From assembly GCA_944363815.1 (NCBI GenBank), contig CALVVI010000003.1:1-32765 (forward strand): DNA of 32,765 nucleotides, written 5' to 3'. Made by a program: the position numbers and the translations under genes. Below are positions 139 through 27,168 of this stretch, piece after piece. The first letter of the stretch is position 1. Each line of letters begins with the position of its first letter. Below the pieces are notes generated by a model, which was not told the origin of the DNA, ran no database searches, and saw only the letters and a list, made by a program, of their open reading frames with translations. The stretch is from an uncultured Bacilli bacterium. Lineage in GTDB: Bacteria; Bacillota_I; Bacilli_A; RF39; UBA660.

Positions 139-1632
139 TTGAAAATTATGGAAGTAAAAAATGAGAAAAAAGTATTATGGTTATCATTTCTTGGAGTTTT
201 AACTTTTATAGCAGTAGTAGTGGGAGCAACATATGCTTACTTCCAAGCTCAAGGTGGAGGTAGTGCTAATACTAATGTTAATGTCCAAACTGCCACAACA
301 GATAACTTATCATTTCAAGTGGGAGAGTCTATAAGGTTAACAGCAAATCAAGAAGATTTTGGAAGCGGTGCAGGAAATAAAAGTGGTAGTACTACAGCAA
401 GTGCAACGCTTACAGCAAACAATGCAACTAATAATGCTACAAGGAATTATTATGTATATTTAGATATTACAAGTAATAATTTTGAATATACAACAGTTGA
501 TGACCAAGCAGAATTATTATTAAAAATAACTGATCCAGATGGAACAGAAGTAACGAATATATCTGGTTTAACAAGAAAAACAAGTGGAGGAGTAACAGGA
601 TTTGATATAACAACATCTACAGGACTCATCACAATAGCAGATAATTATGAAATAACATCAACAGGTACAGTAACCCAAGAATGGCAAATAGAAGTAATAT
701 TTGCAAACTTAGATAGTGATCAAAATGCTAATACCGGAAAGTCATTTAGTGCAACATTAATGATACAAGAAGAGGCATATGAATATACATTAGCAGATGT
801 ATGTCCAGATGGAGGGAATTTAGCAAGTTGTATAGCAGATTTAAATACACTAGCAGGAGATGGTGCTGGTAATTTATACTATCACGATGGTATAGGAAGT
901 TATACAAATGCCGATCAAGAAGCGGGTGATTATTCTTATAGATATAGTGGAGCCGATCCAAATAACTATGTATGTTTTGGAGCAACAGGAGCAGATTGTC
1001 AAGATGAAGATAACCAATATCGAATAATCGGGGTATTTAATAATCAAGTCAAACTAATCAAAGCAACAAGTTATGGAAACTATGCATGGGATGCAGATAG
1101 TGTAAATACATGGGATGAAAGTACAAAACCAGATATATATACCACATTAAATGAAACATACTATAATACATTAGGAAATGAATGGCAAAATCTAATAGCA
1201 GAGTCAACTTGGCAAGTCGGAGGAATGGCATTGAGTAGGACAAATACAGCAAAACAATATTATGATGTAGAAGTAGGAACAGGCCAAAGTGGGTATGAAG
1301 AAACAATGAAAATAGGCTTAATGTATGTATCAGATTATGGATATGGGGCAAGTCCAGAAAAATGGACAACAGCGTTATATGCAAACAATTACAGAACACA
1401 TAATTGGCTATATTTAAGTTCATTTGAATGGTTAATTTCCCGTACTACGGCCCGTACTACGGGCGGTACCGATTCTGCGTTCAGCGTGGTTTCCGGCTTC
1501 ATTGGTAGCGTGCTTAGCGGCATTGTGGGCAATTCGTATGTTGTTCGCCCGTCCTTTAGTCTGACATCCACAGCTACAATTTCCAGTGGTACAGGAACAA
1601 GTTCTGATCCATTTGTGTTAAATCTTGGCTAA
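139..1632 (+). CDS. DGR target protein: secreted/surface protein with SipW/TasA-type signal peptide and C-terminal variable (probably CLec-like) domain
   Basis: N-terminal basic + hydrophobic stretch ending GATYAYF. C-terminal motifs IGLMYVSDY...WLISR...VRPSFSL. The 3' end contains the VR matching the TR. Confidence 0.9.
   Translation: MKIMEVKNEKKVLWLSFLGVLTFIAVVVGATYAYFQAQGGGSANTNVNVQTATTDNLSFQVGESIRLTANQEDFGSGAGNKSGSTTASATLTANNATNNATRNYYVYLDITSNNFEYTTVDDQAELLLKITDPDGTEVTNISGLTRKTSGGVTGFDITTSTGLITIADNYEITSTGTVTQEWQIEVIFANLDSDQNANTGKSFSATLMIQEEAYEYTLADVCPDGGNLASCIADLNTLAGDGAGNLYYHDGIGSYTNADQEAGDYSYRYSGADPNNYVCFGATGADCQDEDNQYRIIGVFNNQVKLIKATSYGNYAWDADSVNTWDESTKPDIYTTLNETYYNTLGNEWQNLIAESTWQVGGMALSRTNTAKQYYDVEVGTGQSGYEETMKIGLMYVSDYGYGASPEKWTTALYANNYRTHNWLYLSSFEWLISRTTARTTGGTDSAFSVVSGFIGSVLSGIVGNSYVVRPSFSLTSTATISSGTGTSSDPFVLNLG
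1435..1548 (+). repeat. DGR variable repeat (VR)
   Basis: Aligns to TR 1829-1930. By manual alignment, 22 of 28 substitutions fall at TR adenines, plus one 12-bp duplication. Confidence 0.95.
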
Positions 1633-1638
1633 GCAAAT

Positions 1639-1671
1639 GCTTGTCTACGCGCCGTACGGTGCGAGGCAAGC
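1639..1671 (+). other. GC-rich hairpin downstream of VR (candidate DGR cis-acting hairpin or terminator)
   Basis: gcttgtct-a-cgcgccg-ta-cggtgcg-aggcaagc imperfect inverted repeat just after the target stop codon. Confidence 0.6.
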
Positions 1672-1731
1672 GGGGCATACTTTTTGCTATGAGTGATAAA
1701 GGTTGATAAAATAGATTGATGAAAATTAAAA

Positions 1732-1763
1732 GCCGTGTCTGCACCGTAAGGTGCAGGTGTGGC
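1732..1763 (+). other. Second GC-rich hairpin between VR and TR
   Basis: Perfect stem ctgcacc-GTAA-ggtgcag (1739-1756), extendable with G-T pairs; core similar to the first hairpin. Confidence 0.6.
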
Positions 1764-1828
1764 ATCGCGAAAAATAAATGTCAAATTAAAAAAATTTTGC
1801 TTATTTTTATAGGGTAATCTTGTGATAA

Positions 1829-1930
1829 ATTTCCCGTAATACGGACAATACCGATAATGCGTTTATTGTGAATTCCAACAACGGTGGTAACGTGAATAAC
1901 GACAATGTGAACAATACGAATGCTGTTCGC
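1829..1930 (+). ncRNA. DGR template repeat (TR) within a structured non-coding RNA (~1811-2060)
   Basis: AAC/AAT-rich copy of the VR with no start codon, flanked by stop codons in the VR frame, upstream of avd and RT. Confidence 0.95.
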
Positions 1931-2090
1931 CAGAGTCCTTAACAGTTCTAGAGTTATAAGATTAAGGTTTTATGAAGGATGAGGTTAAGGACAAAGATTA
2001 TCCTTGGGAAACCCCTAAATAAGAAATATAGATGGAAGTGTATACGTACACTTCCTATATACTATATTAATTTAAGAAAGGATAAGCAAA

Positions 2091-2447
2091 ATGAAGAAAT
2101 ATTTAAAATTATATAAAAATGGTAAATTTTATAATGCCTTTGGTGATGATGGAATAATTATCCATTATTTACTTGGCTATAAATATCTAGAATATAAAAA
2201 TTCAGTAGGATTTCCTGTAAGTGCTTATAACAAAGTTATAGGTAGATTACGTAAAATGGAAATTCCTTTTTTAATATATGATAAAGATGTATTAATGGAA
2301 AAAGAAGATGGAATAAGTAAGAAATATAATGAAGTATTAAAGATAGCTTTAAGTAAGTATGATATGGAAAAAAGAGTAAATAGGATAATTGATAAAGTAA
2401 ATAACTGTTCTATTGAAGAACTAGAGGATAAGTTTATAAATGAATGA
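2091..2447 (+). CDS. DGR accessory protein, MutS domain I-like (MSL-type)
   Basis: LYKNGKFYNAFGDDG resembles the GxFYE mismatch-binding motif of MutS-I. Overlaps the avd start. Confidence 0.65.
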   Translation: MKKYLKLYKNGKFYNAFGDDGIIIHYLLGYKYLEYKNSVGFPVSAYNKVIGRLRKMEIPFLIYDKDVLMEKEDGISKKYNEVLKIALSKYDMEKRVNRIIDKVNNCSIEELEDKFINE

Positions 2448-2778
2448 TAAGTTTTTAATAATAAAGTATCTTAAGAAATTTATTATTAGTATAGAAGCTA
2501 TTATAATGACTTTTCCCAAGAAAGATATAATAAGTAGGAATATGATATATAATGACTTATTAGAAGTATTAGAACTTATAATAATGGCTAATTATGAAGT
2601 AAACAAAGATGTTAAACATAATTATCAAATTAAAGCAATTGCTAAAATAAATAAGATAGATTTTTATTTAGAAAGAGCATATAAATTAAAGTATATTAGT
2701 GAAAAACAAGTAATAAATAAAAGTAATGAATTACTTAAAATTAATAAGATGTTATATAAGTGGTGTAGTAATGGATAA
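2440..2778 (+). CDS. avd: Accessory variability determinant (Avd-like four-helix bundle)
   Basis: 112 aa, basic and helical; FPKKD...YLERAYKLKYIS...INKMLYKW pattern typical of Avd/S23-like proteins. Immediately upstream of and overlapping the RT. Confidence 0.85.
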   Translation: MNDKFLIIKYLKKFIISIEAIIMTFPKKDIISRNMIYNDLLEVLELIIMANYEVNKDVKHNYQIKAIAKINKIDFYLERAYKLKYISEKQVINKSNELLKINKMLYKWCSNG

Positions 2779-3832
2779 TATAACTATTAGTAATTTATTA
2801 AGTATTTATGATAAAGAAATAAGTAAGAATGTTAAGAATAAGAGAAAATTATATAATTTTGATGTAAATAAAATGCAAAATATTAGTAATATTAAAAGAA
2901 TGTTAGAAAGTGACAATGTTGGACACGATAAATATAATATATTTTTAATATATGAACCTAAGTGTCGATTAGTAATGTCATTAAGTATTAGAGATAAAAT
3001 AATTAATCATTATGTAACTAGGTATATATTAGAAAATAAATTAACTAAGTATTTAGATGATAGAAATGTTGCAACTAGAAAGAATATGGGAACTGATTAT
3101 GGAATTAGGTTAGTTAAGAAATATTTGATTAAGTTAAAAAGTAAATGTAAGAAGTTTTATATACTTAAACTTGATATAAGTAAGTATTTTTATAATATTG
3201 ATCATAAGGTATTATTAAGTATGTTAGCTGATAAATTAGATAGTAGAGAATATGAATTGATTAAAAGTATTATAGATAGTACTAATAGAGAGTATATTAA
3301 TGTAATAATAAATAATATTAAAGGTAGTAGAGATATACCATTATATGAATATGGTAAAGGTATTCCAATAGGTAATATGACTAGTCAGTTTTTAGCGATA
3401 TATTATTTAAGTAAGTTAGATTACTATATAATACATAATTTACATTTGAAGTATTATGTGAGGTATATGGATGACTTTGTAATAATGAGTGAAGATAAAA
3501 AGTATTTGGAAGAATGTAAGAGGGTAATTATTGATAAATTAAAAATAGAATATAAGTTAGATATTAATAAGAATAAAAGTAATATAGTTAGTTCTAAAGG
3601 TGGATTTAACTTTTTAGGATATGTATTTAAAGTAATAGATGATAAATTGATTATCACGCTTAGAAAATGTAATAGGGAGAAAATTAAGAAGAAGGTTAAG
3701 GAAGTAAGTTATTTAGTAAATAATAATAAACTAAGTTATTATAAAGCATTTTGTACTATTATGAATTATAAATATGGATTTAAGTATGCAAATAATCTTA
3801 AAGTAAGTAGGATAATAAGTAAGTATTTATGA
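2771..3832 (+). CDS. DGR reverse transcriptase
   Basis: Motifs IYEPKCRLV, RDKIINH, LKLDISKYFYNIDH, GIPIGNMTSQ, YVRYMDDFVI, FNFLGY. No maturase or endonuclease extension. Likely start ATG 2771, coupled to the avd stop (ORF track start 2726). Confidence 0.95.
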   Translation: MDNITISNLLSIYDKEISKNVKNKRKLYNFDVNKMQNISNIKRMLESDNVGHDKYNIFLIYEPKCRLVMSLSIRDKIINHYVTRYILENKLTKYLDDRNVATRKNMGTDYGIRLVKKYLIKLKSKCKKFYILKLDISKYFYNIDHKVLLSMLADKLDSREYELIKSIIDSTNREYINVIINNIKGSRDIPLYEYGKGIPIGNMTSQFLAIYYLSKLDYYIIHNLHLKYYVRYMDDFVIMSEDKKYLEECKRVIIDKLKIEYKLDINKNKSNIVSSKGGFNFLGYVFKVIDDKLIITLRKCNREKIKKKVKEVSYLVNNNKLSYYKAFCTIMNYKYGFKYANNLKVSRIISKYL

Positions 3833-4056
3833 AGAATAAGTATTGGTTTTTTAAAAGAATTTATAAGGATTATGTAATAGTATTTGATAATAATATTAGT
3901 TATGGGATAGATAAAGATTTAATAAAATATATTAAATGTAAGGATATTAATTGTGTTATAGTGGATAGGGAATGTAATATTAAAGTAATTGAGTGTAGTA
4001 ATAATAATTATTATAAGTATGTAATAAGGGAAAGTGTGATAAAAATACTTGAATAA
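3829..4056 (+). CDS. Small hypothetical DGR-linked protein, possibly a degenerate MutS-I-like domain
   Basis: ATGA overlap with the RT stop region; KRIYKDYVIVF...SYGID is weakly like the N-terminus of MutS-I. Confidence 0.5.
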   Translation: MKNKYWFFKRIYKDYVIVFDNNISYGIDKDLIKYIKCKDINCVIVDRECNIKVIECSNNNYYKYVIRESVIKILE

Positions 4057-4084
4057 ATTTATGTAATTTGGTATATTATATATG

Positions 4085-4150
4085 TAAGTGTTACCCATAG
4101 TGGTGGGTAGCATCTACTTTGGTGTAGACGCTATTTTAGCGTCTTTTTTC
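4085..4150 (+). ncRNA. Putative antisense (antitoxin) sRNA
   Basis: Promoter TTGAAT (4049-4054)-17-TATATT (4072-4077) with extended TG. Terminator agacgcta-ttt-tagcgtct-TTTTT (4126-4149). Overlaps the 3' end of the minus-strand small ORF. Confidence 0.6.
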
Positions 4151-4216
4151 CTTTATATCAGCTATTAAACTGAGTATAATAATTATCATTACTAAATAAA
4201 ATTCATTATCGTTCAT
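4136..4216 (-). CDS. Putative type I toxin, 26 aa (MNDNEFYLVMIIIILSLIADIKEKRR)
   Basis: Strong RBS GAAAGGGGAGTGAGG; single hydrophobic helix plus basic tail. Promoter TTGTAT (4346-4341)-17-TAGAAT (4323-4318). Confidence 0.7.
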   Translation of the reverse strand: MNDNEFYLVMIIIILSLIADIKEKRR

Positions 4217-4420
4217 GACCTCACTCCCCTTTCACCCTGATCTCCCAAGGTACCCCCTGAGAAAAAGAATTACTCAAAAAGCAAAGTAGACGCTCCCACT
4301 ATGGGTAACGGTTAATTATTCTAAAGTTAAAATATTAAAAATACAAGAAAAATCGTACGACAAAATTCGGCATCATGGACAATTAGAAAAATAACTGATA
4401 TGATTATGGTGGTGGTAATT

Positions 4421-5566
4421 ATGAATGAAAATATGCTTAATCATAATAAATATTTAAGTAAGTATGCAACACTTGATAGTGATGCGATATATTTGCGTGA
4501 TGTAATGAATGATTTTAGAACGCCTTTTTTTAGAGATATAGATAGGATTATATACACACTAGCTTTTACGAGATATAGCGATAAAACCCAAGTATTTTCT
4601 TTTAAGAGTAATGATCACTTAACGAAGAGAATGATTCATGTGCAATATGTCAGTAAGATTGCCAGAACTATCGGAAGAGCGCTTGCTTTAAATGAAGACT
4701 TGATTGAGGCAAGTGCGCTTGGTCATGATTTGGGACATACTCCTTTTGGGCATGTCGGAGAAGAAATTTTAAATAAGATAAGTTTAGATTGTGGTGAAGG
4801 ATATTTTAATCATAATATTCATAGTGTAAGACTTTTAATGTATATCGAAAACTATGGTAAGGGTAAAGATATAACTTTACAAACACTTGATGCTATCATG
4901 TGCCATAATGGAGAACTTCCGCAATCGGAATATCATCCTGTAAAAAAGACGAAAGAAGAATTTTTAAAAGAGTATAAACTAAGTTATAAAGATAAAACTA
5001 TAATAAAAAAACTTAGACCAATGACTTTAGAGGGCTGTGTAGTAAGAATTAGTGATTTGATAGCTTATTTAGGAAGAGATATTGAAGATGCAATGCGTCT
5101 TAATATAGTAAGTTTTAAAGATATTCCTGATAGTATAAAGAAATACTTGGGTAATAATAATCGGGATATAGTAAATTCTTTAATAAATGATGTAATAGAA
5201 AATAGTTTAGATAAGAGTTATATTAAAGTAAGTGATGAAGTATATAATGCAATTGTTGATTTAAAAGATTTTAATTATAAAAATATATATGCTAAGGCTT
5301 ATACAAAAGAAGAAAGAATAAGTTTAGAAAGAATGCTTAATACATTATTTAATTGTTATATGAATGATTTAAAATATAATAATAAAGATTCTAATATTAT
5401 TAAATCATATTTAAGTAATATGAGTGATGAATATAAAAATAGTAATAGTCATGAACGAATAGTAATTGATTATATCGCAGGGATGACGGATGATTATTGC
5501 CGAAGCGAGTATAATAAATATGTAAAACTTGGTAATACTATTAATGAGGTGCAAAATGATTTATAA
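4421..5566 (+). CDS. dgt: Deoxyguanosinetriphosphate triphosphohydrolase-like HD protein
   Basis: RTPFFRDIDRI, KTQVF, GHDLGHTPFGHVGE, DYIAGMTDDY. Start chosen at ATG 4421. Confidence 0.85.
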   Translation: MNENMLNHNKYLSKYATLDSDAIYLRDVMNDFRTPFFRDIDRIIYTLAFTRYSDKTQVFSFKSNDHLTKRMIHVQYVSKIARTIGRALALNEDLIEASALGHDLGHTPFGHVGEEILNKISLDCGEGYFNHNIHSVRLLMYIENYGKGKDITLQTLDAIMCHNGELPQSEYHPVKKTKEEFLKEYKLSYKDKTIIKKLRPMTLEGCVVRISDLIAYLGRDIEDAMRLNIVSFKDIPDSIKKYLGNNNRDIVNSLINDVIENSLDKSYIKVSDEVYNAIVDLKDFNYKNIYAKAYTKEERISLERMLNTLFNCYMNDLKYNNKDSNIIKSYLSNMSDEYKNSNSHERIVIDYIAGMTDDYCRSEYNKYVKLGNTINEVQNDL

Positions 5567-6827
5567 AACATATAAATGTAATTCTTTTAACGTCCATACG
5601 ATTAAGACTGATAAATTTAAAACAAGTCATATGGAAATAGTTTTTCGAAAAAGTGTTGTAAAAGAAGAATTGGGAGCTTATTCATTTTTATTAGATATGT
5701 TATCAGAGACTAGTAAAAATTATCCCAAAAGGCAAGACTTGATAGTAAAACTTGAAGAATTATATAAAACCAGTATTTATGGACTTACTACTAAGACTGG
5801 AAATCTTTTAAATGCTTCACTTATTGTTGATTTTATTAATCCGGATTTGATTGAAGAGGAAAATTACTTAGAAAATGTATTAAAATTGCCTTTCGAGTTA
5901 TTACAACATCCAAATGTTGTAAATGAAGAATTTGATTTAAAACAATTTAATATAATTAAAGAAAGAATAAAAAGGGAAATAAATAGTATTAAAGATAATT
6001 CGTTTAAGTTGGCAATTGGTAATGCTTTTAAAGTGATGGATGAAAGTAGCCCTACAAGTTATTCAATTTTAGGAACTATTGAACAGTTAGATAAAATTAC
6101 ACCGGCATCTTTATATAAAACTTATAAGAATTTATTTAAAAAATGTGTTTGTGATATATATATTATTGGTAATTTAGATATGGATGAGGTAGTGAGTTTA
6201 ATTAAGAAATATTTTAAACATCGTTATATAAACAATGATATTTTTAATTTGGATGTCGATAATCATTTTAGAAAAAAAGAAATTATAAAGACAGAAAAGT
6301 CTGAAAATATTCAAGCTAATATGGTAGTAATATATAATATTGATGCTTTAAGTGAAGAAGAGAAGCATGTAACTTTTCAAGTATTTAATTATATTTTTGG
6401 TAATGGGGGACTTACTAGTAAATTATATAAACAAATTAGGGAAGAAAATAGTTTATGTTATAGTATTAATAGTCTTTATATGAAATATGATAAATTGTTA
6501 GTTATTCATGTTTCGCTTGATAATAAAAATACTAAAAAAGCTGTTTCTTTAATTAAAAAATGTTTAAAAGATATGATTAGTGGGGACTTTAGTTTAGAAG
6601 AGCTGGAAGATGCTAAAATGAATTTAATTATGGCATTAGATTTAGCTAATGATAATAATGTAGCTATCTTAAATAATTATGTATTTAATTATTTGGATAA
6701 TTTACCAGAGATAGATAAAAGGAAAGAAATGTTAAAGCAAGTTAGTAAAGAAGATGTTATAAGGGTCGCTAAAAAACTTAAAATTAATACTGTTTATGTT
6801 TTAGAAGGTGGTGGAGAAAATGCGTGA
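5556..6827 (+). CDS. M16-family peptidase, non-catalytic subunit (YmfF-like)
   Basis: IKTDKFKT N-terminus, SKLYKQIREENSLCYSI, no HxxEH; paired with the downstream catalytic subunit. Confidence 0.8.
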   Translation: MIYKTYKCNSFNVHTIKTDKFKTSHMEIVFRKSVVKEELGAYSFLLDMLSETSKNYPKRQDLIVKLEELYKTSIYGLTTKTGNLLNASLIVDFINPDLIEEENYLENVLKLPFELLQHPNVVNEEFDLKQFNIIKERIKREINSIKDNSFKLAIGNAFKVMDESSPTSYSILGTIEQLDKITPASLYKTYKNLFKKCVCDIYIIGNLDMDEVVSLIKKYFKHRYINNDIFNLDVDNHFRKKEIIKTEKSENIQANMVVIYNIDALSEEEKHVTFQVFNYIFGNGGLTSKLYKQIREENSLCYSINSLYMKYDKLLVIHVSLDNKNTKKAVSLIKKCLKDMISGDFSLEELEDAKMNLIMALDLANDNNVAILNNYVFNYLDNLPEIDKRKEMLKQVSKEDVIRVAKKLKINTVYVLEGGGENA

Positions 6828-11430: not shown

Positions 11431-11459
11431 AAAATTTCCTCCATACAAAAAATTTGTAT

Positions 11460-11592
11460 GTGATATATCTTTTGTTACAATTTTGATTTTGTTTTTTTAA
11501 TATATCTAACGACTATACTAATCCGTAACTACATCCGCCGAAAAATTCGATAATAGTTATCCTCGTCACCTTTTATTAGGTCTGGCGCTAAC
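11460..11592 (-). ncRNA. glmS ribozyme
   Basis: Minus strand reads AGCGCCAGACCT...AGGTGACGAGG...TATCGAA...TTCGGCGGATG, the conserved ribozyme core, in the glmS 5' UTR. The 3' boundary is approximate. Confidence 0.9.
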
Positions 11593-11698
11593 AAATAAAT
11601 TTTTCCTCCTTTTATTTTATTTGTTTTTATCATTATATTATATTTTTTTTAGTTTTGTCAAAATATTGTAATTTGAATATAAAAGTAATATAATTTAA

Positions 11699-12350: not shown

Positions 12351-13592
12351 ATGCGCAAAATAATTGCTAGTTTGGATATAGGTAATCATACTATTAAACT
12401 TGTAGTTGGAGAAATAGTTCGGGGAAAACTAAATATTTTGGCGTGTGTTGATACTCCAGCTCGAGGAATAAAAAAAGGTTTTGTAATTAATCCTGAAAGC
12501 GCTATTTTAGCCTTGGAAGAAGTTTTTAAAAAAGGCGAGGAACAAATTGGCTTACCTATTAAAAAAGTAATTGTTAGTGTACCTAGTAATGGTATTGAAT
12601 GTTTTTTAAGTGAGGGGTATACATCAATAAATAATGAAAGTGGTATTGTTACTAGTAATGATATAGTTAGATCTATGCAAGCAGCTGTTTATAATAAAAT
12701 TATGGATAATCGGGAGTTAGTGAGTATTTTACCAACAAAGTTTTTAATAAATGATAATGAAGTTACAACTAATCCTCTTTCTATGCATGCTGATAAATTA
12801 AATGTTAAAGCTGTAGTGGTAACAGTTCCTAAGAAAAATGTGACACCAATTATAAAGAGTTTGGAAAAAATTGGGGTGGAAGTTGTTGATATTACAATTG
12901 GTGCTTTAGGAGATTATTATGAATTTAAAACTAATAAAAATATTAATGAAGTTGGGGCGGTTATTAATATTGGAGCATCGAAAACTACAGTATCTATTTT
13001 TAATAAAGGGATAATTACGAATAGTGAAGTAATTGATATGGGGGGAGATAATATCGATTATGACTTGGGATACGTTTATAAAATTAATAGAAAAGAGTCT
13101 TTGTTAATAAAAGAAACAATTGCTCTTGCTGATAAAAATATTGCTCAAGCTAATGAAGCAGTGATTGTTGAAGATAAAAATGGTGATAAGATAAAAATCA
13201 ATCAATATAGTGCAAGTGAAATAGTAATGAGCAGGCTTGAAGAAATACTAAATTTAGCAAAAAAACAAATAAATCTCTTAACAAAAAAGCAAATTAGTTA
13301 TATAATTGTTACAGGGGGAGTAACAGAAACTGCAGAATTTAAAAATATAGTCGATTATGTTTTTAAAAATGCAAGTATTGGCGAAGTTAGAGAAATAGGT
13401 GCTAGACATAATAAATATGCTACCTCTGTAGGTCTTATTAAATATTATGATAGTAGACTTAGACTTCGAAATAGAGATTTTTCAATATTTAGTGTTGAAG
13501 AACAAGAAGAATTAAGTGGAATACATAAAAAAGTAAATATTTCCGAAAATTCAATTTTAGGAAAGTTGTTTGGTTACTTTTTTGATAATTAA
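12351..13592 (+). CDS. ftsA: Cell division protein FtsA
   Basis: [21 protein letters not shown]-terminal amphipathic [11 protein letters not shown]; upstream of ftsZ. Confidence 0.95.
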
Positions 13593-13597
13593 GGAGA

Positions 13598-14662
13598 ATG
13601 TTTATGAATGGATTACAGATGGATCAAATTGCTAAAATAAAAGTAGTTGGTGTCGGCGGCGGTGGATGTAATGCCGTAAATCGAATGATTGAAGAAGGGG
13701 TAAAGAGCGTTGAATTTTATGTTGTCAATACTGATTTACAAGTTCTAAATAGTTCTTTATGTCCAAATAAAATCCAAATAGGTAAAAATATTACTGGTGG
13801 TCGAGGAGCTGGGGCTAATCCAGAGGTTGGTAGAGCTGCAGCTTTAGAAAGTAAGACTGAGTTAGAAGAAGCTTTACAAGGAGCAGATATGGTTTTTGTT
13901 GCATGTGGCCTTGGTGGTGGTACTGGTACTGGTGCAGCTCCAATTATTGCAGAAATTGCTCAAGAAATGGGATCGCTTACTGTTGGAATTGTGACAAAAC
14001 CATTTAGATTTGAAGGAAAAAGAAGAATGGAAAATGCATTGGTGGGCTTAGAAGAATTAAGACAACATGTTGATTCATTAATCATTATTCCAAATGATCG
14101 CTTAAGAGAAATAATTGATAAAACGACAAGCTTTGATGATGCATTTAAAGAAGTAGATAATGTTTTACACCGTGGGGTACAATCAATATCTGACTTAATT
14201 GCAGTAACTGGGGTAATCAACCTAGACTTTGCAGATGTTAAGACAGTTATGGAAAAAAGTGGTACAGCAATCATTGGTATTGGTTGCAATGCTGGAGAAA
14301 ATAGAGCGATTGAAGCCGCACGTCAAGCGGTTGCTAATAGTTTACTTGAAGCAACAATTGAAGGAGCAACAAATGCAATTGTCAATGTAACTGGTGGTAA
14401 AAATCTTACCTTGTTTGAAATAGAAGATGCTGTTGAAACAGTTAGAGAAGCAGCAAATTCAGATATAAATATTATATTTGGGGCAATAAAGAATGAAAAC
14501 TTAACTGATGAAGTTATTGTTACAGTTATTGCTACCGGATTTGATGAAGAAACTGGGGAAGAAGCTTTATTTAGTGATGAACTTCCTAAAAGAAGAAGTA
14601 AACCACAAGAAGTAGATGATGAATATGAGATTCCACCATTCTTGAGAAGTGATAATTTTTAG
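13598..14662 (+). CDS. ftsZ: Cell division protein FtsZ
   Basis: [29 protein letters not shown]-terminal IPPFLR. Confidence 0.98.
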
Positions 14663-14688
14663 GTTCTAGTTAATCTAGAACTTTTTTT
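14663..14688 (+). terminator. Rho-independent terminator after ftsZ
   Basis: gttctag-ttaat-ctagaac followed by a T-run. Confidence 0.7.
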
Positions 14689-14853
14689 GTGCCATAAAAT
14701 TTTGTTAATTTAAAAAATTATTGATAGTACTTGTGATTTTTTGTAATTTTTGAAGATTTTTTTGCAAAAAAACAAAGGAAATTTTAAAAAATACTGATTT
14801 GCGTTAATTAAAATGTTTTGCTATTATAGGATAAATTTATTACAAGGAGATTT

Positions 14854-15738
14854 ATGAATTATTATAATGAAATAAAAAACGAACTAATAAATAATGAAAT
14901 AACCAAAAAAGTAAAAGATTATAGTAAAAACAGAAGTGATTTAACTACATATTACAATGTTGGCAAGTTGCTTAGTGAAGCAGGTAAGCGTTATGGTGAA
15001 GGTATTATTAAACAGTACTCAATAAAATTAACAAATGAACTAGGAAAAGGTTATACAATTACTAGACTAAAATATATGAGACGATATTATGAAGTGTTGA
15101 CAAAAGGTCCGACATTGTCGGACCTTTTGAGTTATTCACATTATTGTGAATTGATTTGGTTTGAAGATTTTAATAAAATAGAATATTATATAAAAATAAC
15201 TATTGAACAAAATTTATCTGTTAGACAGCTTCGGGAACGAATAAAAAATAAAGAATATGAAAGATTAGATGATATTACTAAAGAAAAATTAATATCTAAA
15301 AAAGTAACTACAGTAGAAGATTTTATTAAAAATCCTATTGTTATTAAAAATAACAATAATAGAGAAATTATTTCTGAAAAAGTATTGCAAAAGCTTATAC
15401 TTGAAAATCTTCCATTTTTTTTAAAAGAATTAGGTAATGGTTTTACATTTGTTGAAAATGAATACAAGATAAAAATAGGTAATAGCTATAATTATGTTGA
15501 TTTTTTACTATTTAATTATGAATTTAATTGTTTTGTAGTAGTTGAACTTAAAGTAACTGAACTTAAAAAAGAACATATAGGTCAAATAGAAGTATATATG
15601 AATTATATAGATAAAAACTTAAGAAAAATAACTCAATATAAAACTATAGGAATTATTATATGTAAGAAGGATAATAAATTTATCACGGAATATTGTAGTG
15701 ATTCTAGAATACTTAGTAAAGAATACAAACTGGTTTAG
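14854..15738 (+). CDS. DUF1016/YhcG-family PD-(D/E)XK nuclease, copy 1
   Basis: YYNVGK, LSYSHY, LSVRQL, FLKELGNGFTFV, VDFLLFN, VVVELK, GQIEVYMNY, TIGIIICK. Confidence 0.9.
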   Translation: MNYYNEIKNELINNEITKKVKDYSKNRSDLTTYYNVGKLLSEAGKRYGEGIIKQYSIKLTNELGKGYTITRLKYMRRYYEVLTKGPTLSDLLSYSHYCELIWFEDFNKIEYYIKITIEQNLSVRQLRERIKNKEYERLDDITKEKLISKKVTTVEDFIKNPIVIKNNNNREIISEKVLQKLILENLPFFLKELGNGFTFVENEYKIKIGNSYNYVDFLLFNYEFNCFVVVELKVTELKKEHIGQIEVYMNYIDKNLRKITQYKTIGIIICKKDNKFITEYCSDSRILSKEYKLV

Positions 15739-15747
15739 GGGGTACAA

Positions 15748-16629
15748 ATGAATTATTATAAGGAAATCAAAAATGAACTAATAAATAATGAAATAACTAA
15801 AAGAGTTAAAGATTATAGTAAAAATAGAAGTGACCTTACTGCTTACTATAATGTTGGCAAGTTACTTAGTGAAGCTGGTAAACATTATGGTGAAGGTGTT
15901 ATTAAAGAATATTCTGAAAAGTTAATTAAAGAACTTGGAAAAAAATATTCTTATAGATCACTAAATTATATGTTAAGATTTTATAATTTTCAAAATTTGC
16001 AGTCAATAACTGCAAATTTGACATGGGGACATTGGATTGAATTACTTTCAATTAAAGATATCAATAAGATAAAGTATTATATTAAACAATGTGAAAACCT
16101 GTTGTTAACGACTAGACAATTGCGTGAACGAATAAAAAATAAAGAATATGAAAGGTTAGATGAAGTTACCAAAAGTAAATTAATAGATGATGTTTCTCCA
16201 ACAATTGTAGACTTAATCAAAAATCCCATTGTTATAAAGAATAACAATAATAAAGAAATGCTTTCAGAGAAAGTGTTGCAAAAGATTATATTAGAAGATT
16301 TAGATGATTTCTTAAAAGAATTAGGTGATTCATTTTGTTATATTGCTAATGAATACAAAATAAAAATTGGTAATAGCTATAATTACATCGATTTACTCCT
16401 TTATAATATTAAATTTAATTGCTATGTTGTAGTAGAACTAAAAGTAACTGAACTTAAAAAAGAACATATTGGTCAAATAGAAGTATATATGAATTATATA
16501 GATAAAAACTTAAAAGGTGTTATGCAAGATAAAACAATTGGAATTATTATATGTAAGAAAGATAATAAATTTATAATGGAATATTGTAGTGATAAAAGAA
16601 TTTTAAGCAAAGAATATCAACTTATATAG
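15748..16629 (+). CDS. DUF1016/YhcG-family PD-(D/E)XK nuclease, copy 2
   Basis: Same motifs (LTWGHW, IDLLLYN, VVVELK). Confidence 0.9.
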   Translation: MNYYKEIKNELINNEITKRVKDYSKNRSDLTAYYNVGKLLSEAGKHYGEGVIKEYSEKLIKELGKKYSYRSLNYMLRFYNFQNLQSITANLTWGHWIELLSIKDINKIKYYIKQCENLLLTTRQLRERIKNKEYERLDEVTKSKLIDDVSPTIVDLIKNPIVIKNNNNKEMLSEKVLQKIILEDLDDFLKELGDSFCYIANEYKIKIGNSYNYIDLLLYNIKFNCYVVVELKVTELKKEHIGQIEVYMNYIDKNLKGVMQDKTIGIIICKKDNKFIMEYCSDKRILSKEYQLI

Positions 16630-16636
16630 GAGGATT

Positions 16637-17527
16637 ATGAATTATTATAACGAAATAAAAAATGAATTAATAAATAATGAAATAACTAAAAGAGTAAAAG
16701 ATTATAGTAAGAATAGAAGTGACTTAACTACTTATTATAATGTAGGTAAGTTACTTAGTGATGCTGGTAAACATTATGGTGAAGGCGTTATTAAAGAATA
16801 TTCTGAAAAGTTAATTAAAGAACTTGGAAAAAAATATAGTATAAGAGTTTTATACAAGATGCTGAAATTTTATAATTTTATAACGGATAAAAAATTGCCG
16901 ACAGTGTCGGCAAAATTGACTTGGAGTCATTTTGATGAATTATTAAAACTTAAAAATATTAATTCGATATATTATTATATGTTAATATCTGATCAACAAA
17001 ATTTATCAGTAAGACAACTTCGTGAACGAATTAAAAATAAGGAATATGAAAGATTAGATGATATTACTAAAGAAAAATTAATGTCTAAAAAAGTAACTAC
17101 AGTAGAAGATTTTATTAAAAATCCTATTGTTATAAAAAATTCCATTAATAAAGAAATAATTTCTGAAAAAGCATTGCAAAGAATTATTATGGAAGATTTA
17201 CCATCTTTTTTAAAAGAACTAGGTAATGGTTTTACATTTGTTGAAAATGAGTACAAAATAAGAATAGGTAATAGTTACAATTACATTGATTTATTACTTT
17301 ATAATATTAAATTGAATTGTTATGTAGTTGTAGAACTTAAAGTAACTGAACTTAAAAAAGAACATATTGGTCAAATAGAAGTATATATGAATTATATAGA
17401 TAAAAACTTAAAAGATATTATGCAAGATAAAACAATTGGAATTATCATATGTAAGAAAGATAATAAATTTATTATGGAATATTGTAGTGATAAAAGAATA
17501 TTAAATAAAGAATATAAATTTGTATAG
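16637..17527 (+). CDS. DUF1016/YhcG-family PD-(D/E)XK nuclease, copy 3
   Basis: Same motifs (LTWSHF, IDLLLYN, VVVELK). Confidence 0.9.
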   Translation: MNYYNEIKNELINNEITKRVKDYSKNRSDLTTYYNVGKLLSDAGKHYGEGVIKEYSEKLIKELGKKYSIRVLYKMLKFYNFITDKKLPTVSAKLTWSHFDELLKLKNINSIYYYMLISDQQNLSVRQLRERIKNKEYERLDDITKEKLMSKKVTTVEDFIKNPIVIKNSINKEIISEKALQRIIMEDLPSFLKELGNGFTFVENEYKIRIGNSYNYIDLLLYNIKLNCYVVVELKVTELKKEHIGQIEVYMNYIDKNLKDIMQDKTIGIIICKKDNKFIMEYCSDKRILNKEYKFV

Positions 17528-17559
17528 AAAAAACAGATTAAATGAATGGAGGTAATTTA

Positions 17560-18885
17560 ATGTTAGATGTTATTGAAGATATAAGAAATGAATTTAAAAT
17601 AAAATTAACTGATGATTTAGAAAAAGAAGTAATTGCTTTTTTAAATACTCAAGGAGGCAATATATTTATTGGAGTTGATGATACTGGTAATGTTGTTGGG
17701 CTTAATTTAGATGTAGATTTGTTACAAAGAACAATAAAGGATCGTATTAAAGATAATATTATGCCATCAACAATAGGTTTATATGATGTTGCAGTATTAG
17801 ATTATGAAGATAAAAAATATATTAAAATAATTGTTGCTAGGGGAGTAGAAAGACCATATTATTTAAAAGGGATGGGGATGACTCCAGAAAGTTGTTTTAT
17901 GCGTGTTGGTAGTGCAGTTCAAAGTATGCCATATGATATTATAAATAATACTTTTGTAAAAAGGGTTAGAAATTCATTAAAGAAAATAGAATCTCCAGAG
18001 CAGGATTTATCTTTTACGCAATTGAAAATATATTATGAAGAGAAAAAAATTATTGTTAATGATAATTTTTTGAGGCAGTTAGGTTTTTTCACAGATGATG
18101 GTTTATATAATATGAATGCATTTTTGCTTTCTGATAATAACAATATTCCCATTAGATTTGGAAAATATAGTGGGACACAAGCAATTGATTTGATAGAAAA
18201 TGAAGATTTCGGTTGTTGTTCTATTGTTAAGGCAACTAAAAGTATGTTAGAGAAACTAAAGATAGAAAATAAAATATATACTAAAGTAGGGTATCCACAG
18301 AGGAAAGAAATTGAAATGTTTGATTTTGATGCAGTTAGAGAAGCGGTCATTAATGCTATTGTTCATAATGATTGGGCGAATGGTTATGCTCCAAAAGTAG
18401 AAATGTTTAGTGATAGGTTAGCAGTATCATCAAATGGTGGTATACAAGATAATATAACTGAGGAAGATTTTTTAAAGGGATTTTCTTTGCCTAAAAATCC
18501 TGAGTTAATGAAAGTATTTAGAGATTTGGAATTAGTAGAACAAATGGGTACTGGAATTATTAGAATTCTTAAAAGTTATTCTAAGCAATCTTTTGAATTT
18601 TTCCCAAATTTTATAAGAGTCAGTTTTCCCTTTAAGAAAAACAAATTTGATGAATCAAAGAAAATGGAGTTTAAAGATAAAGTTAATTTATCTATTACGC
18701 AGCAAGCAATTGTTAAATTAATGAGTGATAATCCTAGAATTACTCAAAAAGAGTTAGCTAGACTTTTAGATATTACAGTTAGAGCAATACAAAAAAATAT
18801 AAAGTCCCTTATTGATTTAGGTGTAATTCAAAGATGGGGATCAGATAGAAAGGGAAAATGGAAAATCAATTCTAATAATTTATAG
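17560..18885 (+). CDS. AlbA_2 (Schlafen-like) + HATPase_c_4 + C-terminal wHTH protein
   Basis: NEFK...KEVIAFLNTQGGNIFIGVDD; REAVINAIVHNDW; VEQMGTGI; ITQKELA...RWGSDRKGKW. Start at 17560 after GGAGG. Confidence 0.85.
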   Translation: MLDVIEDIRNEFKIKLTDDLEKEVIAFLNTQGGNIFIGVDDTGNVVGLNLDVDLLQRTIKDRIKDNIMPSTIGLYDVAVLDYEDKKYIKIIVARGVERPYYLKGMGMTPESCFMRVGSAVQSMPYDIINNTFVKRVRNSLKKIESPEQDLSFTQLKIYYEEKKIIVNDNFLRQLGFFTDDGLYNMNAFLLSDNNNIPIRFGKYSGTQAIDLIENEDFGCCSIVKATKSMLEKLKIENKIYTKVGYPQRKEIEMFDFDAVREAVINAIVHNDWANGYAPKVEMFSDRLAVSSNGGIQDNITEEDFLKGFSLPKNPELMKVFRDLELVEQMGTGIIRILKSYSKQSFEFFPNFIRVSFPFKKNKFDESKKMEFKDKVNLSITQQAIVKLMSDNPRITQKELARLLDITVRAIQKNIKSLIDLGVIQRWGSDRKGKWKINSNNL

Positions 18886-18897
18886 TATTAGAATTGA

Positions 18898-19051
18898 TTT
18901 TCTACGAACTTTTCTACGAACTTTTCTACGAACTTTTCTACGAACTTTTCTACGAACTTTTCTACGAACTTTTCTACGAACTTTTCTACGAACTTTCTTA
19001 CGAACTTTTCTACGAACTTTCTTGCGAACTTTCTTACGAACTTTCTTACGA
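18898..19051. repeat. 12-bp tandem repeat (TTTTCTACGAAC / TTTCTTACGAAC), 12 full copies + 1 partial
   Basis: Read directly: first 8 units identical, later units degenerate; no spacers. Confidence 0.98.
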
Positions 19052-19115
19052 CGTTTTGAAATTTGTTCTTGCTAATAAAAAAATTTCCCAAACAATGGTT
19101 GGAAAATTTAGTTGG

Positions 19116-19364
19116 TTATTTATCTTTTTCATCAAGTGGTTCAAACAAAACTCTTATATCTATTCCAAGTACTTTAGCAAATGTCCATATAGTACCAAGA
19201 CTAAATGTTTGTTTATAGTTAGGACTTTCTATATTCATAATAAATCCTTCACTATAGTTACACATCATAGCAAATTTAGTTATCGTTAGGTTCTTTAATT
19301 TACGCTGCTTCTTTAAATTTTGTCCAACAAGATAGTAGATATAGTTTTCATCATTTTTATTCAT
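19116..19364 (-). CDS. XRE-family HTH regulator
   Basis: VGQNLKKQRKLKNLTITKFA...IES...SLGTIWTFAKVLGIDIRVLF. Confidence 0.85.
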   Translation of the reverse strand: MNKNDENYIYYLVGQNLKKQRKLKNLTITKFAMMCNYSEGFIMNIESPNYKQTFSLGTIWTFAKVLGIDIRVLFEPLDEKDK

Positions 19365-19477
19365 AAAAATTAATACCTCATCTTCCTATTAACAATTTTC
19401 TCATTTAATAAGTGAATTAATTTCACCTATTAGGTGATATTTGTGCTATAATAAAAATAAATAATAGGAGTGAGATA

Positions 19478-20502
19478 ATGAATTTAAAATTGAATGTCAA
19501 AAAGAGAAGAGCGGTAATTATAGTAAGCGCACTAGTTTTATTTATTGGTATGCCAATGTAACAGCAGATACAACAGATAACCTACGATTTAATGTAGATA
19601 AAGATATTTATTTAAATCCAACCCAATTTAATGTAGTTGAAGGTGGAGATAATTTATCAGATACAGCAGTAGGAACAGCAACCCTTCTTGCTAATTCAAC
19701 TACTAATAATTTTTCCACAACATATTATGTTTATTTTCAAATAAATTCTAATAATTATATTTATACAACAGAAGAACAAACACCAGAAATAATTTTAACT
19801 ATAACTAATCCAAATGGAGAAGAAGTAACAAGTGTAGATGGACTAGATTATATAGATTCAGGAGAAGTAACAGGATTTGATATAACAACCAAAACAGGAT
19901 TTTATAATATTGCAGAATTATATGAGATAACATCAGCATCAAGTATAAATGCAACAAAACAAGAATGGACATTTACAGTAACATTTATGAATTTAGATAC
20001 AAATCAAGCTGAAAATGGAGGAAAAACTTTAGAAGCAGAAATTATATTAAGTAGAGAAGAAAAGGTAACCCTTGCAAATTATATAATAGACAATGTATAT
20101 GTAGAAGATGGAGTAAACGGATTATATTACCATGATGGAGTTGGAACATATACAAATGCAGAATTAGAAGCTGAGGATAATGCATATCGATTTGCAGGTG
20201 GAGATTATGAAATAACTGATTCACATTTAGATACATATAGTCATATATATAATGAAATTGTTTTAGCAAATTGTGATAATGAATTACAATCAATTGGTAA
20301 TGTGGATTGCGATTCTGGTAATTTATATTTTACGTTAGCGTACGATTCGTCAAGAACTCAATATTCCACAATGGAAAGTGCATTAGAAAAGGCTATAGAG
20401 GAAGGATATATAACGAAAAATAACGTTAAAAATAATATTCTAATTTATCTGTTTGAACAGATAATTTCGCATTGCTTAAAAAAATTTAATCTATCGACTT
20501 AG
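19478..20502 (+). pseudogene. Frameshifted and C-terminally truncated paralog of the DGR target gene
   Basis: ATG 19478 with RBS starts a signal peptide that stops at 19561. A different frame from ~19555 encodes NVTADTTDNLRF...YYVYF...TGFDITT...QEW...NLDTNQ...LYYHDGVGTYTNA...YRFAG, homologous to 139-1632. It ends before the VR domain. Confidence 0.85.
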
Positions 20503-20551
20503 AACGACAAATTAGTCGTTCTTTTTTGTGTATAATCATATTGTGATTAAT

Positions 20552-21349
20552 ATGAAAATATATTTAGACTTAGTATTTATGCTTAATTTTATATATGATT
20601 TACTTTTGATGATGACTGTTGATATAACACTAAAAAGGCATACTAAGTTACGAAAGTTAATATTTAGTGCTATTCTCGGAGCATTATCCCTAGCTATTTT
20701 ATTCCTTCCATGTGGGGAAATAATATTATTTATTCTTAAGGTGGTTACTAGTGCTCTTATGATATTAATTGCTTTTGGATATAAAAACATTAAATATTTT
20801 TGTACTAATATGATTTATTTATACATGACTAGTGTAATACTCGGAGGATTCTTATATTTTTTAAATGTAGAATTTAGTTATAAAAGAGAAGGAATGGTTT
20901 TTTATTTTGATGGCATGAGTGTTAATTATATTTTACTTTTGATTATTGCACCAGTAATATTGTTTTTGTATGTAAGGGAACATAAAAGATTTAAGAGTAC
21001 ATATAATTATAATTATCGAGTAAGTATTGTTTTTAAAAATGGTAAATGTTTGGAATGTAATGGATTTTTGGATACTGGAAATAAATTAAAAGATCCAATA
21101 ACTAAAAAATATGTTGTACTTGTTAATAAAAAAGTATTAGTACCATATATAAATATAAGAAGTCCTATGTATGTAACTTATAAAACTGTTGGGTATCAAG
21201 GGTTAATTGAGTGTTTTAGTATTAGATATATTAAAGTAAATAATCAGATATTTAAAAATTATTTGGTGGGTATCATACCTGAGAAAATAAATTTAAATGG
21301 CAGTGATTGTTTACTTAATTATAAATTAATGGAGGATATAAATGTTTAG
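20552..21349 (+). CDS. spoIIGA: Sigma-E processing peptidase SpoIIGA
   Basis: IYLDLVFMLNF, five TM segments, FLDTGNKLKDP aspartyl motif; directly upstream of sigE. Confidence 0.93.
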   Translation: MKIYLDLVFMLNFIYDLLLMMTVDITLKRHTKLRKLIFSAILGALSLAILFLPCGEIILFILKVVTSALMILIAFGYKNIKYFCTNMIYLYMTSVILGGFLYFLNVEFSYKREGMVFYFDGMSVNYILLLIIAPVILFLYVREHKRFKSTYNYNYRVSIVFKNGKCLECNGFLDTGNKLKDPITKKYVVLVNKKVLVPYINIRSPMYVTYKTVGYQGLIECFSIRYIKVNNQIFKNYLVGIIPEKINLNGSDCLLNYKLMEDINV

Positions 21350-22450: not shown

Positions 22451-22554
22451 GTAATCACCGAATTTATTTTCTCATTAATATTATTATTTTCTAGAAAACG
22501 TGGGAAAATACGAGAAAATGTGTTATTATTAAATTAAGATAAGGGAATGATTTT

Positions 22555-23046: not shown

Positions 23047-23099
23047 GTTGTATAAAATTTACTCCTTTTAGACAAAATATTGTTTGAAAGGAGTTTTAA

Positions 23100-27092: not shown

Positions 27093-27168
27093 TGGCGTCC
27101 CCGAATGGAATCGAACCATCACTCTAACCCTTAGGAGGGGCTTGTTTTATCCATTAAACTACGGGGAC
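27093..27168 (-). tRNA. tRNA-Arg (CCT)
   Basis: GTCCCCG acceptor stem, anticodon loop CT-CCT-AA, GGTTCGATTCC T-arm, encoded 3' CCA. Confidence 0.93.

Follow-up and report, generated by a model that had tools for sequence, protein, structure and literature searches.

Does the cluster of genes and repeats at the left end of a contig from a small gut bacterium form a complete diversity-generating retroelement (DGR), and are the proteins that it would rewrite cellular or viral? The locus occupies positions 139 to 4,056 of a 32,765-nt stretch of DNA (hereafter the window), which is the first 32,765 bases of contig C3 (CALVVI010000003.1) of a draft genome of 91 contigs (1,115,631 bp, 28.6% GC, 90.6% complete, 0.37% contamination). 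The host is a tiny chicken-gut bacterium of the Bacilli that bears sporulation genes, with a genome of about 1.1-1.2 Mb and about 29% GC, near public metagenome-assembled genomes (MAGs) of the 'Candidatus Onthocola' type. A previous analysis of the letters of the window (the sequence-only reading) had described a complete DGR, and this was borne out by a reverse transcriptase (RT) of the DGR clade, an Avd-like protein, adenine-specific differences between the template region (TR) and the variable region (VR), and turnover of the VR from strain to strain. Judged from these sequence comparisons, the locus is, with a probability of about 0.85, a functional-looking chromosomal DGR of the MSL/Avd type (MSL, MutS-like) that would rewrite secreted, non-phage, lectin-like targets in cis and in trans. 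The mechanism is canonical; the host clade and the target architecture are new. The sequence-only reading is extended here by a VR addressed in trans, a second DGR, the scale of the target family (32 members in this genome), the identity of the MSL protein and its pairing with an extra MSL-like open reading frame (ORF), an older TR state that dates the mismatch between TR and VRs, and a covarying hairpin and spacer.

A repeat finder returned a single 99-nt direct repeat (1451-1549 against 1833-1931, 72% identity, spacing 382). The TR copy of this core contains 33 adenines in 99 positions, and the 28 mismatches fall at TR bases A (22), T (3), G (2) and C (1), a recount that reproduces exactly the 22 of 28 substitutions at TR adenines reported before. 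In the target frame, all 22 changes at TR adenines hit the first or the second position of a codon. The pair that had been placed at 1435-1548 (VR) and 1829-1930 (TR) is real, with the fuller extents given in Table 1. The VR of the target gene in the window (VR1) is 12 nt longer than the TR because of a tandem duplication, which also accounts for the unequal VR and TR lengths of the sequence-only reading. When the full TR was aligned with VR1, one duplicate copy being omitted, differences stood at 24 of the 37 A sites and at 6 of the 72 others (Fisher p = 9.6e-10). At the homology end, G[T/C]TGTTCGCC is common to VR and TR, and the two sequences diverge thereafter.

The whole genome was also scanned with the TR, its adenines being masked and up to 22 mismatches being allowed at the 72 other positions. 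Only three matches were obtained: the TR itself, VR1, and a segment of contig C19 (C19:17791-17899, VR2), which forms the 3′ end of a paralogue having 75% identity with the target of the window. The TR was the sole match for both VR1 and VR2. Between VR2 and the TR, 26 of the 37 A sites and 12 of the 72 others are changed (p = 4.5e-8). The 12-nt duplication of VR1 is found neither in the TR nor in VR2 nor in the related strain L010, and among 12 aligned proteins it occurs in P0001, the database copy of the target, and P0002 only. Both duplicate copies bear the same A-to-C change with respect to the TR; slippage or misaligned integration of cDNA are candidate origins of the duplication.

The RT matches RVT_1 (E=2.1e-18), and its alignment displays the motifs ...IGNMTSQ... 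and YMDD. Its placement was examined in a tree of 29 RTs, comprising the RT of the window, a paralogue encoded on contig C41 of the same genome, 11 relatives, four phage DGR RTs (BPP-1 Brt, nd12, FP_Lagaffe and VP58.5), eight group II RTs taken from same-class genomes, and four retron-type RTs, one of them from the host genome. The 13 candidate RTs formed one clade (SH-aLRT, Shimodaira-Hasegawa-like approximate likelihood ratio test, 100), joined by the four phage DGR RTs at SH-aLRT 99, and the group II and retron-type RTs fell outside. The RT thus clusters with DGR RTs rather than with group II introns or retrons, the phylogenetic check that had been proposed with the first reading. All NCBIfam models of non-DGR RTs scored far under their cut-offs (group II, 83.6 bits against 300; Drt3a, 52.7 against 200; retron, 39.5 against 235). 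The Avd-like protein is recognized by NF033474 DivGenRetAVD (E=2.4e-8; its 34.2 bits lie under the curated cut-off of 80) and by phrog_3206, annotated as 'Avd protein of DGR' (E=1.1e-9). Independently, the host genome contains a third RT of retron type at C14:8961-9776 (NF038233, 222 bits, just under the cut-off of 235).

All elements of the cassette lie on the + strand in the order target, VR, two hairpins, TR, structured spacer, MSL, avd, RT and ORF75 (Table 1). The order target-VR-hairpins-TR-accessory-avd-RT on one strand had been given correctly before; ORF75 lies within the coordinates then considered and had gone unmentioned. All five ORFs are intact. The accessory gene encodes an MSL protein, which matches Pfam MutS_I (E=8.7e-5, 23.2 bits, cut-off 20.6). 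A profile of its family built from 26 homologues matches weakly the mismatch-binding domain of MSH6 (2o8b_B, E=0.014), and the Phe-Tyr of the G-x-F-Y motif is invariant in the family alignment. No ORF of the cassette matched HRDC in the Pfam search. ORF75 gave no match to Pfam, NCBIfam or PHROG profiles; an hhalign comparison does align it to the family of MSL (probability 93.2%, E=2.9e-7), with an internal deletion of about 26 residues, and therefore the cassette holds two MutS-I-like genes. Homologues of ORF75 show in-frame insertions and deletions between loci. Our guess is that MSL and ORF75 handle the mismatched heteroduplex between cDNA and target.

Table 1. Positions of the DGR features in the window, and layout of the second DGR of the same genome
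Feature	Position	Strand	Remarks
Target gene 1	148..1632	+	494 aa; alternative TTG start at 139
GATYAYF motif	223..243	+	end of N-terminal hydrophobic segment; putative SipW-type cleavage region
VR1	1429..1549	+	121 nt; encodes WLISR...VVR; ends 83 nt before the stop codon; 13% A
Tandem duplication in VR1	1439-1450 + 1451-1462	+	12 nt, two identical copies; four extra residues
Homology end and 3′ tail of the gene	1540..1632	+	tail unlike TR; the 83 nt past the homology end almost identical behind VR1 and VR2
Hairpin 1	1639..1671	+	GC-rich stem of about 14 bp, loop GUAC; 7 nt past the stop codon, 90 nt past the VR end
Hairpin 2	1732..1763	+	14-bp stem, loop GUAA
TR	1823..1931	+	109 nt, 37 A, many AAY codons; non-coding, in-frame TGA TAA at the 5′ end
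Spacer	1932..2090	+	near-invariant core; covarying hairpin at 2034-2055
MSL accessory gene	2091..2447	+	118 aa; MutS-domain-I-like
avd	2440..2778	+	112 aa; overlaps the RT start
DGR RT	2726..3832	+	368 aa; start may be the Met at 2771, where the C41 paralogue begins
ORF75	3829..4056	+	75 aa; overlaps the RT stop codon; shortened MSL-like paralogue
Terminator-like hairpin and T-run	4126..4152	+	closes the cassette
Second DGR (C41, locus L006)	1006..5978		target-VR 2199-2292, MSL-like, avd, RT, TR 4314-4407, target-VR 5801-5894

The non-coding parts of the cassette are structured. Folding of the intergenic stretch 1633-2095 gave z = -5.7 relative to 100 shuffles, and both hairpins noticed in the sequence-only reading are real by this fold and by the compensatory double changes at 5 of 15 pairs of hairpin 1 (7 loci compared). 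Two public MAGs, L009 and L010, carry near-identical cassettes (RT protein identity of 99% and 97%, respectively), and L009 is collinear with the window at 86.7% nucleotide identity over 8.2 kb; in both of them hairpin 2 has another sequence with the same hairpin shape. A hairpin with dG <= -14 kcal/mol starting 66-115 nt past the VR end was present in 21 of 23 related loci, a figure obtained without shuffle control. In the spacer, 15 of 28 predicted pairs were changed on both sides among 11 loci, one row of which (L018) was misplaced by its coordinates. The spacer is a candidate counterpart of the 'Sp' region of DGR RNAs, which binds RT-Avd and primes cDNA synthesis, and the segment 1540-1632 is a candidate target recognition stretch of IMH type (IMH standing for initiation of mutagenic homing). 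Terminator-like sites numbered four against 0.7 expected. The promoter scan was uninformative (31 sites, 32.1 expected), and the sites at 88-116 and 1684-1712 are unsupported guesses; no Rfam match was found inside the cassette.

By these features, the element would operate as follows. An RNA carrying the TR and the structured spacer would be made, and RT-Avd would copy it into cDNA with misincorporation opposite the template adenines, a property established for DGRs in general. The cDNA would replace the VR of target gene 1 in cis and that of the C19 paralogue in trans. Because the adenines occupy the first two positions of AAY-type codons, some 20 residues would be randomised at the end of a DUF6273-like (C-type-lectin-like) domain, the scaffold residues being kept. 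The targets would be secreted by means of a hydrophobic segment ending in GATYAYF, followed by an N-terminal module (N-module) of about 180 aa.

The recent history of the element was followed by comparison with L009, L010 and contigs from four sequencing runs; assembled contigs drop rare variants. Between the window and L010, the TR differs at 3 of 109 positions, the spacer at 2 of 158 and the tail behind the VR at 4 of 83. The VR differs at 30 of 87 positions, of which 23 are among the 30 TR-A sites and 7 among the 57 others. At TR positions 1864-1867, the window and L010 read TTT ATT, and L009 and the contigs of runs X6 and X7 read TTC AAC. The corresponding triplets are TTC AGC in VR1, TTC GCC in VR2 and TTT CTT in the VR of L010. 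Since VR1 and VR2 match the TR state of L009, both were written from an older TR; L010 has the derived TR together with a VR that reads TTT CTT, and therefore this sister strain homed after the TR change.

These comparisons bear on whether the element is a DGR by descent that is now inactive in this strain, its VRs being frozen relics in a drifting cassette. Several observations weigh in this direction and against a functional element. By the triplets above, the last rewriting of both VRs in the window strain is older than three substitutions in the TR. Run X2, which belongs to another study, has a contig that agrees with the window at every base of 693-1571, VR and 12-nt duplication included, so that the VR1 allele is stable across samples. 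Differences at non-adenine sites are commoner (6 of 30 in VR1, 12 of 38 in VR2) than in close relatives, whose mismatches fall at A in 20 of 21, 17 of 17, 15 of 15 and 13 of 14 cases. VR1 has acquired the extra duplication, and the GC-rich covarying hairpin, which in the search for an IMH-associated inverted repeat was located about 90 nt downstream of the homology end, follows VR1 only, the GC-rich hairpins being absent after VR2. It is the age of the two VRs and the stability of the X2 allele that give the inactive state its weight. We nevertheless consider it unlikely: the five ORFs are intact, the TR and the spacer are the best-conserved parts of the locus in the comparison with L010, and that strain has homed since the derived TR arose. 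DGR homing is generally rare, so that alleles common to several samples are to be expected. A hint in favour of a functional element came from the runs themselves, since in two other runs there are contigs that match the sequence flanking the VR left and right and skip 1443-1542, and depth is low in the bin 1401-1540 in all four runs; this fits divergent VRs and is confounded by paralogues and contig ends.

The functional-looking DGR favoured here is not alone in its genome. The second DGR, on C41 (Table 1), encodes an RT 55% identical to that of the window, and a conserved 40-nt element lies about 100 nt after each of its VRs. The TR of this second DGR is a fit for VR-like segments of C17 and C84 too, with mismatches mostly at A sites, and would serve four or more VRs, compared with two for the TR of the window. 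In total, 32 family ORFs or fragments were detected in the host genome (phmmer), amounting to 2.6% of the assembly; 13 of them touch contig ends. Paralogues on C5, C47, C12, C69, C50 and C49 have 108-nt segments equivalent to the VR, with 12-20% A and about 55-60% GC. They were rejected as targets of the window TR (gapped alignments had 16-28 non-A mismatches and 3-10 gap positions), and no TR for them was found in the assembly. These six A-poor segments may be orphan VRs, or targets of a TR that is unassembled or lost.

The N-module occurs in 7 of 61 genomes of the order: all five of this genus (8-25 matches each; genomes of 1.0-1.2 Mb), G280 (24 matches), and G272 (one match), a related genome of another genus. 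It also exists as a protein by itself, in the host genome on C18 and C38. The window itself contains, at 19474-20499, a truncated paralogue in which the N-module has neither signal nor lectin-like domain and is 44% identical to residues 57-273 of target 1.

What kind of protein is being diversified? The database copy P0001 has 494 aa and begins MEVKN. Residues 1-215 form the N-module, and the C-terminal part of about 230 aa is a divergent DUF6273-like domain that carries the VR. No significant match to Pfam or NCBIfam was obtained with target 1, and a search of PDB sequences with the family profile returned nothing at E<=1. The direct score of target 1 on DUF6273 (PF19789), 12.1 bits with E=0.18 against a cut-off of 23.5, speaks against the assignment; likewise, seven paralogues in the host genome match this family at E<=1 and none exceeds the cut-off. 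The putative lectin fold is assigned from DUF6273 by way of homologues and from the literature. Two full-length homologues, P0136 (29.8 bits; 45% identical to target 1 over the full length) and P0179 (24.7 bits), score over the cut-off, the VR maps to the end of the DUF6273 profile in both, and 17 of 43 aligned family members match the profile at E<=1. DUF6273 is described as a target domain of gut-phage DGRs and modelled as C-type-lectin-like in the available text of two papers (PMC10743442, PMC11792537). In 12 close homologues, the residues encoded by the VR vary, and AF, V, G, V and VRPSF are fixed. The family is very large: 7547 of 8000 candidates scored belong to it at E<=1e-5, and at E<=1e-3 it comprises 2862 clusters (50% identity). 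The targets thus belong to a very large unannotated family, with no Pfam name on the target.

The sequence-only reading had also proposed a SipW-type, TasA-like secretion signal and a role as an adhesin or fibre tip. Of the 32 family ORFs in the genome, 12 contain the motif G-A-T-[YF]-A-Y-F. The genome encodes a SipW-type signal peptidase (sipW at C34:262-771, 93.9 bits, cut-off 51.85), and we find it somewhat better supported than its competitor that this enzyme cuts the hydrophobic N-terminus of the targets. The competitor, to which we give a smaller though substantial share, is that the hydrophobic segment is no SipW substrate and would instead be an uncleaved membrane anchor or be cut by an ordinary type I signal peptidase. 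TIGR04088 stays under its cut-off of 19 bits for every family member in the genome, a point against SipW processing: target 1 scores 9.4 bits (residues 19-34), target 2 16.5 bits and the best family member 16.9. Its distribution points the other way, since, of its 12 matches in the genome at E<=1, 11 coincide exactly with family N-termini. Homology to Peptidase_M73 (PF12389, TasA/camelysin) was found in no family member, the sole weak match in the genome lying away from the family (C5:10382-10573, 17.7 bits, cut-off 22.5). Nor does sipW adjoin any family gene in the host or in the same-genus assemblies inspected. In G272, by contrast, the N-module has a gene of its own (206 aa) that terminates 4 nt ahead of sipW, as part of a tight, operon-like cluster (locus L108, G272:C23, 1983-5001) in which the N-module gene is followed by sipW (287 aa), a 165-aa gene, and a gene whose N-terminus is similar and has the motif G-I-S-Y-A-V-Y.

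The tapA-sipW-tasA operon of Bacillus subtilis is a SipW-type cluster resembling that of G272. They have in common the gene of a SipW-type peptidase, N-termini ending in a G-x-T-[YFW]-A-x-F-like motif and, in G272, an N-module gene that abuts sipW; they differ in that the family lacks homology to Peptidase_M73/TasA and stays under the TIGR04088 cut-off. The presence of sipW in the host and in 53 of 61 genomes of the order is compatible with SipW processing. Co-occurrence was discarded as a test: all seven genomes with the N-module have sipW, and with 53 of 61 positive order-wide the comparison is powerless. Membrane-anchored or signal-bearing proteins make up most cellular DGR targets, according to the available text of PMC8144416, which suits the alternative. 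The SipW-type signal is thus less well supported than had been proposed, the argument for it coming from the sipW gene of the genome and from the N-module gene next to sipW in G272; an adhesin or fibre tip would be one possible role for such a protein.

Are the DGR and its target then cellular, or a prophage or phage remnant whose target is a tail-fibre or receptor-binding protein? The statement that no phage genes lie nearby holds for the right flank and the target. To the right, the cassette is followed by genes for a dGTPase, two M16 peptidases, rpsD, an HD protein, glmS with its ribozyme, ftsA and ftsZ, then by two YhcG-type nucleases, a Schlafen-type ATPase, spoIIGA, sigE, sigG and other housekeeping genes, and no phage families were detected in these 28 kb. 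To the left, the contig starts 138 nt before the target gene and the flank is unassembled, so that absence of phage genes is shown to the right only; this gap counts against a purely chromosomal interpretation. A phage origin would also agree with the RT clade being sister to that of gut phage nd12 (SH-aLRT 95), and with DUF6273 having been described so far in phage DGR targets, as far as the accessible text of PMC10743442 and PMC11792537 goes. We hold it to be very improbable. PHROGs matches in the cassette are restricted to Avd and RT, and none of 50,697 phage records matches the target. The RT is at most 37% identical to a phage RT and up to 64% identical to RTs on chromosomes of Bacilli MAGs; a scan of viral contigs yielded one related locus (34% identity) against 89 in genome contigs. 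The second target stands on a different contig, where its neighbours are metG, tatD, two genes for AAA ATPases and one for an XRE regulator. In L020, a 130-kb contig of the same genus that carries the same cassette, cellular genes occur on both sides: CCA-adding enzyme, DnaD-like, nth and XRE on one, beta-lactamase-like, AbiEii and sulfatase-type on the other. Finally, the secretion-type N-terminus and the 32 paralogous ORFs or fragments in the genome are at odds with a phage fibre. The cassette of L020 occupies a different chromosomal place and was rejected as a guide to the left flank of the window.

The chromosomal DGR of the window belongs to a clade of such loci. A scan of species-representative genomes gave 343 pattern matches, of which 89 had RT relatives and 80 were kept for counts. 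Avd was present in 77 of the 80, MSL in 64, and homologues of ORF75 in 22 (17 directly after the RT). An A-biased TR/VR pair lay inside the fetched stretch in 47 loci, with the TR upstream of the RT in 43 of these. The titles of nearly all records name uncultured Bacilli, Tenericutes, Erysipelotrichaceae, 'Clostridium sp. CAG:609', 'Firmicutes bacterium CAG:822', or Candidatus Onthocola, Onthousia or Scybalousia; a few are labelled Muribaculaceae. DGRs of the gut have so far been described mostly in phages and Bacteroides, and in its available text a survey reports that gut-dominated DGR clades are almost exclusively viral (Roux et al. 2021, PMC8144416). At least 80 cellular loci in uncultured gut Bacilli with reduced genomes form a clade unlike these mostly viral gut DGRs. 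Within the library searched, DGRs were mentioned jointly with RF39 or with SipW in no paper.

The element was compared with known systems. The DGR of phage BPP-1 (mtd-VR, avd, TR, brt) has an RT of the same clade, Avd, and a TR/VR of about 110-130 nt with adenine-specific changes; the VR likewise lies at the 3′ end of the target, with GC-rich homology ends and an inverted repeat downstream, in the description available from PMC5758913. The element of the window differs in being chromosomal, in its order VR-TR-MSL-avd-RT, in its two extra MutS-I-like genes, and in having the hairpin about 90 nt past the homology end, behind the stop codon. Its target is a secreted cellular protein without sequence match to Mtd, and a second target is served in trans.

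MSL is a named class of DGR accessory protein, reported in 16 DGRs including one in Legionella, always with avd (Wu et al. 2018, PMC5758913, in the text available). As described in the main text of that paper, Architecture D likewise combines a small MutS-like protein with avd and has no HRDC gene; the clade studied here is apparently not phage-associated and has non-adjacent targets, as PMC5758913 describes for cellular lineages. Unlike Architecture D with its 16 DGRs, at least 64 loci with MSL were found here in gut Bacilli, and 17 of the loci add a shortened MSL-like ORF after the RT. The 16 DGRs of Architecture D, or the earlier surveys (PMC5758913, PMC8144416), may already include this clade or the extra ORF.

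The chromosomal DGRs of Treponema denticola and Legionella pneumophila are also cellular and diversify surface or secreted proteins with a lectin fold, and that of Treponema has several remote paralogous targets (PMC5758913, available text). Treponema differs by its HRDC accessory, and both differ from the window in the N-terminal module of the target and in host lineage. The targets of these two DGRs have secretion signals of the lipoprotein or Tat type, unlike those of the window.

Parallels to the target domain come from gut phages with DUF6273 targets (the tentaclins of nd4 and nd12, and Faecalibacterium prophages). They share the Pfam family, reached through full-length homologues, and the position of the VR at the C-terminal end of DUF6273, with an end motif ...VRP...; nd12 has the nearest phage RT (33% identity), sister to the clade in the tree. 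Their targets carry Ig-like or tail-fibre modules, in contrast to the signal-bearing cellular N-module. Target 1 of nd12 matched the family profile of the window weakly, over the VR region only (probability 26.7%, E=6.9e-4). An ORF at L107:2280-3170, guessed to be target 2 of nd12, was rejected, having no similarity (probability 0.1%). Lastly, the DGRs acting on type V pilus adhesins of Bacteroides are, in the available text of bioRxiv 10.1101/2024.11.15.621889, cellular DGRs of a gut commensal with diversified adhesive surface components. They belong to another phylum and pilus system, and for the targets of the window an adhesin role is only presumed; no pilus assembly genes were found in the case of the window.

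If these likenesses are combined, a larger scenario can be drawn, which taken as a whole we regard as improbable. Spore-forming gut Bacilli with small genomes would have taken over a DGR of gut phages along with its lectin-like receptor-binding head and joined this head to a SipW-processed, possibly TasA-like polymerising module. The cell would thereby acquire fibres or surface arrays with tips that two or more DGRs rewrite, and MSL and ORF75 would be clade-specific proteins that bind the heteroduplex and block repair or guide resolution. Independently of this scenario, the clade offers a concrete system for asking about the function of MSL proteins in DGRs and about the way in which a single TR reaches targets in cis and in trans with differing downstream hairpins. 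TR variants occur in it as a natural series, some with VRs that match and some with VRs that do not, from which homing events can be dated.

The host had been placed in a spore-forming lineage, and the gene content agrees with this. The window contains a cluster running from ftsA-ftsZ to spoIIGA-sigE-sigG (12351-23876), and spo0A (249.6 bits), spoIVA (346 bits) and two spoVAC/EB genes are encoded elsewhere (C4, C66 and C53); no small acid-soluble spore protein (SASP) was found in the host genome. With a sporulation gene set in about 1.1-1.2 Mb, the genome is unusually small for a putative spore former.

Some observations concern the surroundings of the cassette. A 35-nt element with a hairpin upstream of the target (43-77) recurs at C18:4671-4705 with 97% identity. 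Positions 72-127 are identical to the final 56 nt of contig C76, which suggests a branch of the assembly graph just upstream of the target gene; as a hint from the assembly graph only, this overlap would point to an ABC transporter and radical-SAM neighbourhood left of the window. On the right, a dGTP triphosphohydrolase gene (4400-5566) directly follows the DGR terminator. It is collinear in L009 and not in L020 of the same genus, and the adjacency is therefore probably coincidental. The only Rfam matches in the window are the glmS ribozyme upstream of glmS (11452-11600, - strand) and a tRNA (27096-27168, - strand). Between ftsZ and spoIIGA (14854-18885), two tandem YhcG/DUF1016 PDDEXK nuclease genes stand next to a Schlafen gene of the AlbA_2/HATPase/HTH type, and together these may form a small defence islet.

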